Virus record (IMG/VR): IMGVR_UViG_3300024270_000010
Source of the DNA: a virus
Lineage: Duplodnaviria > Heunggongvirae > Uroviricota > Caudoviricetes
Length of the DNA: 64,000 nucleotides
Direction: 5' to 3' (one strand)
Shown: one piece after another, positions 37,854 to 62,089 of the stretch
Numbering within the stretch: position 1 is the stretch's first letter
Layout: the number at the start of each line of letters is the position of its first letter
Made by a program: the position numbers and the translations under genes
Notes under the pieces: generated by a model
Databases searched by the model: none
What the model was told of the DNA's origin: nothing
What the model saw: the letters and a program-made list of their open reading frames with translations, nothing else

Positions 37854-38591
37854 TTATAACATAAAACGACTATTTTCTAATAAATCATCTATTTTAAGTG
37901 TAGATAAGTGAGTATAGGGTATTCTAATTAAATTAATCCCATTATCCTTACACCATTTAGTCTTAAAATTATCTTTTTCAATGGTTTTAAGATAATTTTC
38001 TTCTGTATTCCATTCATATCCTGTAAAATAGAAGTGTTGATAACCATCAAATTCAATTACTATATTATAGGTCGGTAAATAAAAATCAAATCGTGCTTTG
38101 GCTTGTGTATCGGGAAATATACAAGTATCAAAGGTTTTTTCTTTTTCAAATTCAATATTATAATATTCTAGCAATTCTTGGATTTGATATTCACCTTTAG
38201 AGGTACCAATACATCCACAGGAAATGGTTAAACCTCGCTTAATATTTTCTCCATCTTTAATTAAAGAACTATTCCCACAATCACAATCACAATACCAAAA
38301 AGAATGTCTATTTTTTCCTCCTGTAGGATTTGGAGCCTTGCCTGTGACTACCAATTTACCAAATCGTTGCCCCGTTAAATCTATTACTCGCTTTTGGGCA
38401 GATTCTTTTTGCAGACAACCACAACTTAAAGTATGGTTGCGACGAAGATTGTCTCCCGATACGATGGTAGATTTTCCGCATTCACATTTACATATCCACT
38501 GAACAGAACCTTGTGGAGTGCGCTCAGAATGTTCTTTTATAACGGTTAATTTTCCAAAAACCTTTCCAGTTAAATCAATTTTTCTTCCCAT
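37854..38591 (-). CDS. Zn-ribbon repeat + Vsr/DUF559-like endonuclease-domain protein (paralogue 1 of 3)
   Basis: Two W(I/Y)C.C.CG...SCGC repeats, then FDFYLP...IEFDGYQH...NLIRIPY (E.DG.QH core). Confidence 0.5.
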   Translation of the reverse strand: MGRKIDLTGKVFGKLTVIKEHSERTPQGSVQWICKCECGKSTIVSGDNLRRNHTLSCGCLQKESAQKRVIDLTGQRFGKLVVTGKAPNPTGGKNRHSFWYCDCDCGNSSLIKDGENIKRGLTISCGCIGTSKGEYQIQELLEYYNIEFEKEKTFDTCIFPDTQAKARFDFYLPTYNIVIEFDGYQHFYFTGYEWNTEENYLKTIEKDNFKTKWCKDNGINLIRIPYTHLSTLKIDDLLENSRFML

Positions 38592-38692
38592 AACATTTAC
38601 CTCATTTCGTCATAGTATTTTTTCTCTACTATATATAAGTTTGACGAAATAGAAATTATAATGTTTCGTCCAAAGAATTGCGGAACTCCGGT

Positions 38693-39439
38693 TCAGCGGT
38701 CGGCTGACCTGGCTGCCGCAATCTTCTTACCACCGCGCTTTGCCTTACGCTCAATGGCGCCATCAATAGCCATGCGGTGAATGGAAGTGATTTTGGAAGA
38801 AATGCCGAACTTGTTGAGGAAGGAGTTCAGATGCAGAGGCTCATAGCCGCAAGCATCGGAACAAACATTGGTATGGTTGGCACGGAAAGCGCCAGCATGG
38901 TCATGACCGTGGAAGTTCCACAGCCAGGGAATATCAACGGGTTCGTGGGTCAGAATAATCTTCTCACCGATAATCAGAGCGCCCTCATAGACCTCGTCAA
39001 AGAGGCAGTTATCGGCATGAGCCACCCATCTCTGGAAAGGAGCATGGAACTCCCACTGCTCAGTAACCCAGATCTTCCAACCGGGATACTTCTTAGTCAT
39101 ATCGACAACAACCTCGTCCTGAGTCCACTCGTCCTGATCGTAGATTTCTTCGACGATCTTACGCTCATAGTTAGTGCGGCCCACATCATGATTGCCCATG
39201 ACTAGAACCTTATAACCACGGAGCTGGCGCACGCATTCAATATCGCCTACATCACCCAGGAGAATCAAAGTATCCTTTCTACCAACCTTGGAATTGATCT
39301 TGGCGATATGTTCGGCGTCAGAAGGACGCTTCTTGATGCTCTTGGCGAGATCCTTATCACCGAAGTGAGGATCGGAATACATCCAGACGGTGTTCTTACA
39401 CCAATGCTGGAACTGAGGATAAATTCCGGGAATAGCCAT
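38693..39439 (-). CDS. Calcineurin-like metallophosphoesterase
   Basis: YSDPHFGD ... GDVGD ... GNHD motif series. Confidence 0.7.
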   Translation of the reverse strand: MAIPGIYPQFQHWCKNTVWMYSDPHFGDKDLAKSIKKRPSDAEHIAKINSKVGRKDTLILLGDVGDIECVRQLRGYKVLVMGNHDVGRTNYERKIVEEIYDQDEWTQDEVVVDMTKKYPGWKIWVTEQWEFHAPFQRWVAHADNCLFDEVYEGALIIGEKIILTHEPVDIPWLWNFHGHDHAGAFRANHTNVCSDACGYEPLHLNSFLNKFGISSKITSIHRMAIDGAIERKAKRGGKKIAAARSADR

Positions 39440-39457
39440 AGTATCAAACTCCTTTTC

Positions 39458-39706
39458 TTAGTAGTCTAAACAATCAATTGCGAAATGGGCATAACCCAAA
39501 AGGAAGGGAATTACCAGTAGATACAGGAAAATGCAATCCGGAGCATTCAGCCAAACGCATAATGCCTGCGGCAGAAGGAAAATTAAAAAGGCAATTAGTA
39601 CCGCCATGATGATGAAAAACGATTTTGCCATTGTATGAAAGTAAGGATGATCGTATTTCAGTTTTCTGAACATTCTACTTACTTCATAAGGATTTATTTT
39701 TTTCAT
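39458..39706 (-). CDS. membrane protein (82 aa)
   Basis: Two TM helices. Confidence 0.35.
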   Translation of the reverse strand: MKKINPYEVSRMFRKLKYDHPYFHTMAKSFFIIMAVLIAFLIFLLPQALCVWLNAPDCIFLYLLVIPFLLGYAHFAIDCLDY

Positions 39707-39735
39707 TTCTTTTCCCTCCCTTATCTTACATAAAT

Positions 39736-39764
39736 ATTATATCATATTTTTTTATAAAAATCAA
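39736..39764 (-). promoter_or_regulatory. Class-II cassette promoter
   Basis: TTGATTtttataaaaaaatatgaTATAAT. Confidence 0.6.
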
Positions 39765-39795
39765 TAAAGACCCTATGGATGCCACAGGGTCTTTA
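39765..39795 (-). terminator. Rho-independent terminator (agaccctatggatgccacagggtct)
   Basis: Stem-loop plus U-run, 3' of 39798..40073. Confidence 0.5.
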
Positions 39796-39797
39796 TC

Positions 39798-40073
39798 TTA
39801 CCAATAAGGGTCTTCATTGATTGAAGATATTGGTTCTTCTTCGATAGTCTTTTCCATGAGCTTTTCAACAAACTCAGTCATATGACGGCATTTGTTCTCT
39901 TGATAGAACTTGCGTCCTGCTTCAGCGACCGGATACAAGACCGCAACCAATATGCCCCACAATACACCATATCCCATAAGAGATAAAAATGCAATGCAGA
40001 CAGTTAGCATTGTAGCCAGGAGCACAGAAATTCCCATGGACTTAATCGTTAGCTTCTTTACTTTTAGCTTCAT
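39798..40073 (-). CDS. membrane protein (91 aa)
   Basis: Two TM helices. Confidence 0.35.
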   Translation of the reverse strand: MKLKVKKLTIKSMGISVLLATMLTVCIAFLSLMGYGVLWGILVAVLYPVAEAGRKFYQENKCRHMTEFVEKLMEKTIEEEPISSINEDPYW

Positions 40074-60234: not shown

Positions 60235-60299
60235 TATAACCCTCCTTTTTATGTAAGTAAATATCTTCATAATATTATAAAAAATTCATTGAGCATCTT

Positions 60300-60390
60300 A
60301 ATACTTTTAGTCCAAAAATTTCTAAATCACTTTTTACTTTTGGGTTTTCGGCACTTTCGACTGGCACCGACCGGAGCAGGTTATCTGTTA
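60300..60390. repeat. Conserved intergenic element, copy 2 (see 33865..33935), in the divergent region between the minus-strand late genes and the single plus-strand gene
   Basis: Shared blocks aaatttctaaatc, ctttt, tttgggtt.tcgg, ccggagcag. Confidence 0.45.
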
Positions 60391-60456
60391 TATTCGGCCA
60401 AAAAATGGTAATATTTATCTAAAAATTTTTATATTTTATGAAAGGAGAGTGTTTAC

Positions 60457-61191
60457 ATGAAAATTATTACTAATAGAAATCACTCATATTTTATTAATGA
60501 CTTGACCACAGCTGAACTCGGCAGCATTATTTTTGATACTGATGAAAATAAAATGTATATTATGTTAGAACCTGGTGTTCTAACTGAAATTGCTGCTGAA
60601 GATGTTGGTGTTGAAACACTAGAAGCTTTGACTGAAGCAATTGCGGCTGGCGGTGAAGTAGTTGTTTCCGCAAGTATTGATGCTCCTGCTGGATTTGCCG
60701 TTACCGCAGACACTACTGTTGTAAATAATGGTGAAATCACCATTAAAGAAGATACTGAAGGTAACGGTGTATTTACTGTAACTAATGGTACTTTAACTCT
60801 AGATGGTAAAGGCACTATCAATGGATTGGGTAATAATGATTGGAGTATGGCCGTATGGGCCAAGGAAAATGGTAAAGTAATTATTAATAATGGTTATTTT
60901 ACTAATGTTGGCGCTAAATCTGTTGAAGATTCTGAACATTTTGACTTAATCTATGCTTCTGGAAATGCTCAAGTTGAAATCAATGGTGGCGAATTCAAGT
61001 GCGAGACTCCTAAGTGGACTCTAAATATTAAAGACAAAGACCGTGCGACCGCAAGCATTGTCGTTAAGGGTGGTAAGTTTCACGGCTTTAATCCATCTGA
61101 TTGCGCAAGCGAAGGTCCAAATACTAATTTTGTAGCTCCTGGCTATAAAGTGGTTGAAGAGAATGGCGTATTCACAGTAATGCCAGAATAA
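60457..61191 (+). CDS. Right-handed beta-helix-like repeat protein (possible tail spike/fibre-associated), 244 aa
   Basis: Only plus-strand gene; AAAGGAGAG RBS; repeats NNGEITIKED / GNGVFTVTNGTLTLDGKGTINGLGNN typical of parallel beta-helix proteins. Confidence 0.5.
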   Translation: MKIITNRNHSYFINDLTTAELGSIIFDTDENKMYIMLEPGVLTEIAAEDVGVETLEALTEAIAAGGEVVVSASIDAPAGFAVTADTTVVNNGEITIKEDTEGNGVFTVTNGTLTLDGKGTINGLGNNDWSMAVWAKENGKVIINNGYFTNVGAKSVEDSEHFDLIYASGNAQVEINGGEFKCETPKWTLNIKDKDRATASIVVKGGKFHGFNPSDCASEGPNTNFVAPGYKVVEENGVFTVMPE

Positions 61192-61195
61192 AAAT

Positions 61196-61228
61196 TAAAA
61201 GGCTGAGATAGAAATTCTATCTCAGCCT
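61196..61228 (+). terminator. Rho-independent terminator (ggctgagatagaaattctatctcagcc + T-run) for the plus-strand gene
   Basis: 11-bp stem then TTTTTTGTTTTT. Confidence 0.55.
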
Positions 61229-61246
61229 TTTTTGTTTTTCTATAAA

Positions 61247-61285
61247 AAAAAATCCCCTCTCCGAAGAGAGGGGAAGGATTCGAGA
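61247..61285 (-). terminator. Rho-independent terminator (cccctctcttcggagagggg) for the convergent minus-strand gene
   Basis: Stem-loop plus U8 on the minus strand. Confidence 0.55.
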
Positions 61286-61336
61286 TTACTTGATAACGGC
61301 GTAACGCTCGCTATCCAGCTTCTGCGGCCGTGCCGA

Positions 61337-62089
61337 TCAAGAGATTGGTAAGTCAGGCTCACGCACGAGATATTTATCGCCCATTATCATTTCTAATGTA
61401 ATTTTATCTTTTTCCCAATATGGGATACGAACCAATGGGATATTATGGGTTAATGCATATTCATTTTTAACAGCATCCCTTTGTTTTTGTAATTCTAATC
61501 CACCCCACTTATCAACACTATGATAATGTTGTTCTCCGTCAAATTCAATAAGGCGTACTATTTTATCATTTTCAACAATAGCAAAATCAAAACGACTTTT
61601 TGGCAAATCTAAAAATACATATTCCTCAATGAAATTAATACCTTCAAAGATTAAACAATTTAAAACATTGGTCGCACCAACTGAACGATGATAACAGCCA
61701 CAAGAAACGGTTCTATTTTCATCTTTTCTGCGCAATTCATGGCCTCGAACTTCAATAATTTTTCCACAATCGCATTGACAAATCCAATATAATTCTCCGC
61801 CATTTCCTTTGCGCTCACTGCGTTGTTTAACAACCAATTTACCAAATCGTTTGTTTAACATTTCTTCTTCACTTTTTTGGTATTTTGCTTTTCTTAATTG
61901 CTCTTGACGATAGCAACCACAGCTCGATATATCACCATTTCTCAATGAGATACTTTTTACACTTTTTATTGTGCCACATTCGCACTAACATATCCAATAA
62001 CTGCCACCAGTTGTTTTTCTATTTTTATCTCTCTCTAAGACAGTTAATTTACTAAATTTTTGATTTGTTAAATCTATTAATTTAGACAT
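61337..62089 (-). CDS. Zn-ribbon repeat + Vsr/DUF559-like endonuclease-domain protein (paralogue 3), one in-frame TAG (61985-61987)
   Basis: AAGGAG RBS, ATG 62089. First repeat GGSYWIC[TAG]CECG aligns with the second repeat ELYWICQCDCG, so TAG matches Gln. C-terminal IEFDGEQHY...NIPLVRIPY. Confidence 0.5.

Follow-up and report, generated by a model that had tools for sequence, protein, structure and literature searches.

Genes and predicted nuclease domain

The stretch of DNA analysed here, referred to as the window, comprises 64,000 nucleotides of the IMG/VR virus record IMGVR_UViG_3300024270_000010 (Caudoviricetes) and contains three scattered genes, here named g1, g2, and g3 (Table 1), whose proteins combine tandem zinc-ribbon-like modules with a nuclease-like domain. 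An original prediction, made from the sequence alone, had described them as a family of homing-type endonuclease genes, two of which carry in-frame TAG codons. Its coordinates were correct for all three genes, and the strand, which it had left unstated, is minus; plus-strand translations of the three loci are riddled with stops. Scanning the window with a hidden Markov model (HMM) of the family returned exactly g1, g2, and g3. Judged from sequence, the three are homologous members of one large family, with g2 and g3 showing 36% and 33% identity to g1. A recent duplication within the genome was rejected as their origin, because g2 and g3 are this distant from g1 and because g1 and g3 have nearer relatives in other phages.

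As predicted, a W(I/Y)C-x-C-x-CG...SCGC module is present twice per protein, and comparing the copies showed the motifs FG(K/R)LTV, W-x-C-x-C-x-C-G, and S-C-G-C in both modules of g1, g2, and g3. Modules 1 and 2 of g1 are 43% identical (E 2e-15), and structure model and alignment alike showed the N-terminal half of g1 as two cysteine modules made mainly of beta-strand; a Pfam search returned no NUMOD match. The first module of g2, a gene whose TTG start lies 8 nt downstream of a GGAG, is a degenerate variant in which SCGKC replaces SCGC, and the HMM match of g2 begins at model position 77. Downstream of the modules, all three proteins contain the nuclease motif of the original prediction, in the order RFDF, IEFDGxQH, D..K, and (I/V)RIPY.

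The family comprises more than 7797 database proteins at E <= 1e-3, nearly all of them unnamed. Protein lengths peak near 245, 294, and 376 amino acids, with additional modules in the longer proteins (three or more in relatives). Homologs were found in 598 cultured-phage records, and in phage Twort one homolog lies under features annotated 'terminase large subunit' and 'intron-encoded protein B'. Strong matches in PHROGs carry the annotations 'HNH endonuclease', 'homing endonuclease', and 'intron encoded nuclease'. Neither Pfam nor NCBIfam holds a model for the family (an NCBIfam search gave no match), and its members are commonly labelled 'HNH endonuclease'. Because no Pfam HNH family matched g1, g2, or g3 at E <= 1 and the predicted nuclease domain has a Vsr fold, the 'HNH' labels on PHROG 374/559 and on many GenBank homologs appear to be mislabels.

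Modelling g1 with AlphaFold2 from an alignment of 67 sequences gave a mean predicted local distance difference test (pLDDT) score of 89.6. Comparing this model to the Protein Data Bank (PDB) with Foldseek returned Vsr (1cw0_A and 1vsr) as the best matches with a probability of 1.00, though the E value was merely ~0.01. According to the model, the g1 nuclease domain has the Vsr-like alpha/beta fold required of EDxHD endonucleases. D169, E180, H186, D207, and K210 (g1 numbering) do not vary across the 67 sequences, and E134, D182, G183, and Q185 are nearly invariant. In I-Bth0305I, the EDxHD family is defined by E170, D196, (N208), H213, and D222, which equal E25, D51, H64, H69, and D97 of Vsr (PMC3239194), and the D-to-H spacing of 17 in g1 is the same as that between D196 and H213. 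Aligning g1 to Vsr by hhalign (using a sequence identical to chain 1cw0_A) paired E134 with E25, D169 with D51, and D182 with H64 at a weak score; the correspondences H186/H69 and D207/D97 were assigned from order and spacing only. Together, fold and motif suggest a Vsr-like nuclease domain of the EDxHD type, with E134, D169, D182, H186, and D207 as the defining residues in g1. The Vsr/DUF559 label, for which the original prediction had proposed an HMM check, hence stands in its first half: structure comparison supports a Vsr-like fold, whereas DUF559 (PF04480) gave no Pfam match at E <= 1 and DUF2726 fell just below threshold.

Insertion sites and cassette anatomy

Comparing the window with 80 loci anchored on the Thg1 gene, which lies beside g1, and 80 loci anchored on the DUF2828 gene, which lies beside g3 (numbered L001 and upwards), showed precise presence or absence of the three genes among otherwise syntenic relatives. 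All three are absent at their sites in the closest relatives, g1 from L004, g2 from L004 and L005, and g3 from L085, L088, and L089, which is the insertion polymorphism that the original prediction had suggested looking for. Each gene occupies a small AT-rich cassette with its own leader: g1 upstream of Thg1, g2 between a promoter and a metallophosphatase gene, and g3 at the 3' end of DUF2828. The GC content at third codon positions (GC3) is 0.19 in g1, 0.14 in g2, and 0.21 in g3 compared with 0.45–0.59 in adjacent genes, and the three genes are AT-rich compositional islands foreign to their flanks. A megablast search with the 36–44 kb region against GenBank phages gave no match, and the nearest cultured relatives of the DUF2828 gene are just 42% identical.

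In L004, the closest large relative, the gap between metallophosphatase and Thg1 measures 145 bp, compared with 879 bp in the window. In none of the 80 Thg1-anchored loci does a family member directly precede Thg1; the g1 orthologs in L001–L003 all lie directly upstream of Thg1 as in the window, in phages whose Thg1 proteins are merely 52–66% identical. Between the window and L001, g1 shows 93% amino-acid identity and the flanking genes 64–66%. By codon position, g1 identity is 93% (first), 98% (second), and 72% (third), and since third positions of the flanks reach only 42–48%, g1 is younger than its surroundings. The same codon-position pattern indicates that g1 is under purifying selection. 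Both the age of g1 and the GC3 contrast support the 'recent arrivals' of the original prediction. In the g1 leader, the GC-rich 5' segment GCGGCAGCC reads as the final codons of the upstream metallophosphatase, and TGGACRA-N24-34-TATA is found at 38630..38672; the leader is conserved upstream of the L001 and L003 orthologs. In L005, the position of g1 directly upstream of Thg1 is taken by a gene for a 272-aa GIY-YIG and NUMOD1 homing endonuclease (3331..4149), and two unrelated endonuclease families use this one site. In L003, a TM2 and GIY-YIG protein adjoins the g1 ortholog.

At the g2 site, a sigma-70-like promoter repeat is followed by the metallophosphatase ATG after ~39 bp in L004 and after ~796 bp in the window, where the interval holds g2 and its leader. 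The g2 leader contains the 16-mer TTATAGAAGGAGTTGA in exact form at 41633..41648 and TGGACAA at 41683..41689.

The g3 site differs from the gene-less allele on both sides of the gene. Read from 3' to 5', it consists of a displaced DUF2828 remnant, g3, its leader, a new terminator hairpin, and a variant DUF2828 3' end. Over 82 bp, the remnant matches the 3' end of the gene-less L085 allele, terminator included, at 90% identity, and the L085-type 3' end reads ...GAGAAGTTGGATAGCGAGCGCTACGCTGTTATCCATTAA. Such 3'-end duplications were detected by comparison against the 3' ends of every DUF2828 allele; self-comparison of each locus was insensitive to them. A similar DUF2828 remnant follows the family member of L104, and in L035 and L100 the downstream sequence resumes ~10 nt past the DUF2828 stop codon. 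Among the neighbours of DUF2828, family members rank first upstream (13 loci) and second downstream (13). Of the unique members at least 45% identical to g3, 10 of 11 lie directly downstream of DUF2828, with the eleventh at a contig edge, compared with 7 of 62 among more distant members. The DUF2828 proteins of phages sharing the g3 clade at this position are 50–64% identical. Lineage and site are tied for g1 as for g3, and this binding of the g3 lineage to one site, together with the insertion polymorphism and the GIY-YIG gene at the g1 site of L005, supports the free-standing homing-endonuclease behaviour that had been proposed. The original prediction had further invoked GIY-YIG and HNH genes in the window, of which a GIY-YIG gene was found and an HNH gene was not among the open reading frames (ORFs) tested, in a search that was not exhaustive. 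The GIY-YIG gene (738..1697, minus strand) encodes a 319-aa protein in which a membrane helix at the N-terminus and a coiled coil precede a GIY-YIG domain at the C-terminus (Pfam E 2e-8), an atypical layout for a homing endonuclease.

The leaders share several elements. A GC-rich 5' edge is common to the g1 and g3 leaders, with ATGCGGCnGnCCCGTCTCG also found at the edge of the L001/L002 cassette, and a 19-mer from the 5' edge of the g3 leader reappears in L001/L002, likewise at the 5' edge of their g1-type cassette. TGGAC(A/G)A is present in all three leaders 60–80 nt ahead of the start codon and upstream of many relatives. In the window, TGGACAA occurs at chance rate, and the spaced pattern is found upstream of g1 and g3 and before no other gene; it was therefore taken as cassette-specific, and a role as a general late promoter was rejected. 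The leaders also contain weak sigma-70-like matches, by consensus only. Besides its exact copies in the g2 and g3 leaders (62095..62110 in the latter), TTATAGAAGGAGTTGA occurs as a two-mismatch variant (56057..56072, minus strand) directly upstream of a reverse transcriptase gene, and none of the window shuffles reached three such matches, so that three TAG-bearing mobile-element genes share one leader and ribosome-binding context. In a related 200-kb contig (IMGVR_UViG_3300032007_000018; L152/L188, L165, and L228), at least five family members are spread over different positions, and some of them contain as many as 9 TAG. Carriage of multiple family members is common in this phage group.

In-frame TAG codons and other features of the window

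As predicted, two of the three genes carry in-frame TAG, g2 at two positions and g3 at one. All internal stops of g2 and g3 are TAG, with no TAA or TGA, and the cysteine and catalytic positions 3' of the TAGs are all intact. Read with the standard code, g2 would yield products that lack either the beginning of module 1 or the catalytic region around D207/K210. On the minus strand, g2 is the only TAG-bearing gene between ~12.6 and 47.5 kb and g3 the only one in 60–64 kb. The claim that these were the only TAG-bearing genes of the early/middle region is thus only roughly right, with the qualification that TAG was also found in frame in the GIY-YIG-domain gene 738..1697 (3), the lysin 10917..12389 (2), and the 47.5–59.4 kb block (a 1393-aa ORF with 3, the reverse transcriptase with 11, and others). 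Outside the structural block as well, TAG-bearing genes are not limited to this family. Since the resident phage is itself TAG-recoded, and relatives carry tRNA(CUA), the recoded donor of the original prediction is not needed. Eight minus-strand stop-to-stop ORFs of at least 80 codons end in TAG, of which six are fragments of read-through genes and the others are 17946..18218 and 33121..33414.

Full-length family members from related loci contain as many as 8 TAG codons, or as many as 15 when the sample is widened, and match the HMM end to end. At the alignment columns where family members have TAG (55 positions), Q is enriched 6.8-fold, and in six genes of related phages TAG stands on the near-invariant Q of DGxQH. 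On alignment evidence, TAG encodes glutamine (code 15) in this family and phage lineage. Genes for tRNA(CUA), one or two per locus, were seen in tRNA arrays 1–5.9 kb upstream of DUF2828 in L090, L104, L115, L132, L144, L149, and L152; family members lie amid or directly after tRNA genes in L090, L132, and L152, and L115 also has a tmRNA-like gene (2946..3255). When these tRNAs were aligned with tRNA-Gln genes of phages, only that of L090 gave a suggestive result, and this assignment was not relied on.

Counting TAG codons showed 60 in 8388 codons for family members of the first set of loci and 127 in 21653 for the wider sample, compared with 1 in 20513 for Thg1 and 0 in 37821 for DUF2828, that is, ~6–7 per 1000 codons in the family and ~0.02 in neighbouring conserved genes. 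Translation of g2 and g3 is probably limited by the efficiency of TAG suppression, and their late expression would be consistent with the TAG enrichment of the family beside TAG-free neighbours. TAG is absent from g1 and several other AT-rich genes. More broadly, the window is a compositional mosaic: genes at 16.8–47.5 kb and DUF2828 have a GC3 of 0.40–0.59 and prefer CAG for glutamine, and genes at 0–14.6 kb and 47.5–60.3 kb, as well as the three endonuclease genes, have a GC3 of 0.14–0.31 and use CAA plus TAG. TAG-bearing genes all belong to the AT-rich class, and the converse is not true. In 17946..18218 (minus strand), a small zinc-finger-like early ORF, homologs end within a few residues of its TAG, and suppression would add ~30 residues overlapping the next gene. 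This TAG is probably a true stop, and TAG may therefore carry both meanings, depending on the stage of infection.

Apart from these genes, a repeat of 50–60 bp, TTGATTTTTATAAAAAAATATGATATAATATATAT (TTGATT, 17 nt, TG-TATAAT), recurs in intergenic positions, often behind a terminator hairpin, and lies upstream of many TAG-free gene blocks. It is 85–97% conserved in intergenic regions of related phages and is probably an early promoter for the host RNA polymerase. A cassette resembling a diversity-generating retroelement occupies 53436..57670 (minus strand), where the reverse transcriptase is flanked by the paralogs 53436..54629 (2 TAG) and 56444..57670 (0 TAG), whose C-termini look like variable regions. 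It belongs to an AT-rich block at 47574..60400 that also holds the 1393-aa repeat protein, a U32-like gene, fibre-like genes, and most TAG-bearing genes; because L086, L088, and L089 have 1–3 kb in its place, this block is a variable module.

Table 1 Positions of the three genes, their cassettes, and further features in the window
Feature	Position	Strand	Remarks
g1	37854..38591	minus	245 aa; ATG start; no internal stops; two zinc-ribbon-like modules and predicted Vsr-like (EDxHD-type) nuclease domain
g2	40900..41628	minus	242 aa; TTG start; TAG at codons 15 and 207; family HMM E 1e-62
g3	61337..62089	minus	250 aa; TAG at codon 35
g2 codon 15, in-frame TAG	41584..41586	minus	opposite K of the FGKLTV motif in paralogous modules
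g2 codon 207, in-frame TAG	41008..41010	minus	family alignment column Q 58, I 13, K 11 (Q majority)
g3 codon 35, in-frame TAG	61985..61987	minus	within WIC-x-CECG; family column K 32, Q 25; second module of g3 has Q there
g1 leader	38592..38719	minus	GC-rich 5' segment (GCGGCAGCC...), then TTGGACGAA, TATA-rich stretch, ribosome-binding site; defined against L004/L001 junctions
g2 leader	41629..41691	minus	between promoter repeat (41692..41752) and metallophosphatase start codon (40896)
g3 leader	62090..62201	minus	ATGCGGCCGGCCCGTCTCG, terminator-like hairpin (62164..62193), TGGACAAAA, TATA, TTATAGAAGGAGTTGA
Replacement DUF2828 3' end	62202..62236	minus	..DSPRYEVIG-stop; diverges from gene-less allele (..DSERYAVIH-stop); aligned with L085
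Displaced remnant of original DUF2828 3' end	61243..61323	minus	..KLDSERYAVIK-stop; immediately downstream of g3; own terminator hairpin 61253..61274
TTGATTTTTATAAAAAAATATGATATAATATATAT repeat	approx. 18210-18269, 19188-19236, 20505-20566, 21963-22011, 26104-26160, 29182-29245, 29914-29978, 33796-33858, 35339-35388, 39705-39770, 41692-41752, 44852-44909, 47463-47533, 63784-63836		
Reverse transcriptase	54910..56055	minus	Pfam RVT_1; GC 23%; 11 in-frame TAG
Sigma-70-family sigma factor	34412..35329	minus	complete; regions 1.2, 2, 3, 4
NAD-salvage cluster	22041..29200	minus	NADAR, NAD synthase, NAMPT-like, isochorismatase-like, and Sir2-like ORF (Sir2 by eye)
850-aa protein	44946..47495	minus	major-vault-protein shoulder and repeat domains

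A homing interpretation and its relation to known systems

We consider it likely that g1, g2, and g3 belong to one very large, uncurated phage family of free-standing homing endonuclease genes and were each acquired independently, residing in a phage that reads TAG as glutamine. The N-terminal array of two zinc-ribbon-like modules would recognise DNA and the C-terminal Vsr-like EDxHD domain would cut it. In a mixed infection, the enzyme would cleave the gene-less allele near the insertion site, and repair from the gene-carrying allele would copy the cassette across. DNA arriving at the g3 site would also have brought a variant DUF2828 3' end, presumably resistant to cleavage, and shifted the original end to its downstream position. 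The TAG codons would not be defects and would be read as glutamine through phage tRNA(CUA), so that full-length g2 and g3 protein would be made only under active suppression, presumably late in infection.

Several results weigh against this interpretation. Whether built from the whole protein or from the nuclease domain alone, HMMER profiles compared to all PDB sequences at E <= 10 matched neither 3r3p nor Vsr and gave chance-level matches only (e.g., MutT and MO25), and hhalign against Vsr gave a probability of 1.7%, which does not establish EDxHD membership at sequence level; that assignment consequently builds on fold and motif and not on sequence statistics. In Pfam, DUF2726 (PF10881) remained sub-threshold for all three proteins (13.9, 21.9, and 23.4 bits; cut-off 24.7). 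No close relative of g2 was found in IMG/VR (<=38% identity) and, with its degenerate first zinc module, g2 could be a decaying copy. Thg1 showed no clear co-conversion tract: window and L001 are more alike in its 5' part, but the same holds for L004 and L005 without the gene, and this gradient hence provides no evidence of co-conversion. No suppressor tRNA was found in the window or in the next 5.7 kb covered by L084. Finally, a TTG at 61945 might give a 202-aa g3 product without suppression, and TAG gating of g3 may thus be incomplete.

Part of these points would also be expected if g2 and g3 were decaying pseudogenes, with TAGs as ordinary nonsense mutations acquired after fixation, the usual end of a homing cycle, and g1 as the only functional copy. 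Both genes are interrupted under the standard code, the SCGKC module and lack of relatives of g2 and the missing suppressor tRNA fit with decay, and in L104 a TAG falls on a near-invariant W (column 480). We nevertheless regard decay as improbable, as the three interruptions are all TAG, without TAA, TGA, or frameshift, and downstream catalytic and cysteine positions are intact. Moreover, the 1393-aa ORF, lysin, and reverse transcriptase of the same phage contain in-frame TAG as well, relatives with up to 15 TAG match the HMM over their full length, TAG replaces a near-invariant Q in six genes, and related phages carry tRNA(CUA).

Alternatively, the genes could have been domesticated by the phage, as sequence-specific nucleases or DNA-binding zinc-ribbon regulators that serve in co-infection exclusion, host DNA degradation, or control of adjacent genes. 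Purifying selection on g1, and the persistence of the g1 ortholog beside Thg1 and of the g3 clade beside DUF2828 despite the divergence of both neighbours, would agree with such a role, and the conserved leader of each cassette might act as an operator; I-TevI autoregulates its own expression. Most relatives, however, lack the genes at these sites, L005 has a different endonuclease family at the same site, composition is foreign to the flanks, and g1 is younger than its surroundings, all of which suits a mobile element. Competitor exclusion is, in addition, how homing endonucleases act in mixed infections, and would be an added benefit more than a true alternative. On balance, we find domestication quite improbable. 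Repair or restriction-like nicking enzymes of the Vsr/DUF559 type without a homing role are very unlikely, although Vsr is the best structural match and DUF2726 a sub-threshold one, given the replacement of Vsr H64 by D182 (hhalign) and of W68 by Q185 (by our extension of the alignment), a separate N-terminal DNA-binding array typical of homing endonucleases, insertion polymorphism at lineage-specific sites, and PHROG relatives annotated as homing or intron-encoded nucleases.

Within the homing interpretation, we tentatively suggest, as an idea that is rather doubtful, that the TAG codons form a genetic-code lock. The endonuclease genes would be kept full of TAG and their early neighbours free of it, the nuclease would be made only after the phage's tRNA(CUA) becomes active, late in infection, when repair templates exist, TAG-bearing copies would work in recoded phages only, and the zinc-ribbon array would provide modular DNA recognition. 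TAG reassignment would then both time homing and confine it to recoded lineages. It is also possible that TAG passively accumulates in AT-rich genes that are not needed until suppression starts. TAG-rich selfish genes a few bases from essentially TAG-free conserved genes offer a natural contrast for testing whether stop reassignment determines when, and in which phages, particular genes are translated. The insertion sites, 5' of Thg1 and at the DUF2828 3' end with its remnant, are concrete predicted cleavage targets. Recognising the family as a Vsr-like nuclease with a variable zinc-ribbon array would correct many annotations, and the array is possibly a modular DNA-recognition scaffold.

Among known systems, the predicted proteins are closest to the EDxHD/Vsr-like homing endonucleases (prototype I-Bth0305I, PDB 3R3P; the free-standing and 'fractured gene' members of Dassa et al. 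2009; phage Hef), with which they share the combination of acidic residues and histidine, a spacing of 17 from D to H, and a bipartite layout with the DNA-binding part N-terminal to the nuclease. Genes of both kinds occur free-standing in phages, and one homolog of the present family is possibly intron-encoded, judging by annotated features. As in the present cassettes, hairpins precede the endonuclease ORF, and motifs have been sought in such hairpin regions (Dassa et al. 2009). In contrast to the NUMOD or helix-turn-helix N-terminus of EDxHD endonucleases, the present family has tandem Cys-rich zinc-ribbon-like modules, two in g1–g3 and three or more in relatives. The 'x' position is Asp (D182) instead of Asn208 in I-Bth0305I or His64 in Vsr, and E180, Q185, and K210 are additionally conserved. 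Compared with E. coli Vsr, the very-short-patch repair endonuclease (1CW0/1VSR), the mismatch-repair context is absent and the genes are mobile and polymorphic, H64 would be replaced by Asp (hhalign) and the intercalating W68 by Gln in our extended alignment, and Vsr has no counterpart to the N-terminal zinc modules.

Free-standing homing endonuclease genes of T4-like phages (seg, mob) form small intergenic cassettes by conserved genes, vary in presence and absence, and can belong to different families at one locus. The cassettes in the window share these features and additionally have leaders or promoter-like sequences of their own; they differ in that the nuclease is predicted to be Vsr-like instead of GIY-YIG or HNH, and in their recoded TAG codons. 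In fungal mitochondrial atp6, insertion of a mobile ORF duplicates the 3' end of the target gene. By analogy, the replacement 3' coding end and downstream remnant at DUF2828 would reflect the same kind of event, in a phage genome and with a different nuclease family. In Agate phages, an intron-encoded endonuclease that lies amid early genes is preferentially recoded (TGA), which its authors expected to postpone production of the enzyme to late infection (Borges et al., bioRxiv 10.1101/2021.08.26.457843). There, TGA is read as Trp in an intron-encoded gene of one phage group, whereas here TAG is read as Gln in free-standing, predicted Vsr-like genes at many loci of another group. Elements of this kind are already known, as is the idea of recoding as a gate on endonuclease production; the domain architecture, the TAG contrast quantified across a phage group, the tie between lineage and insertion site, and the 3'-end duplication of DUF2828 are new.

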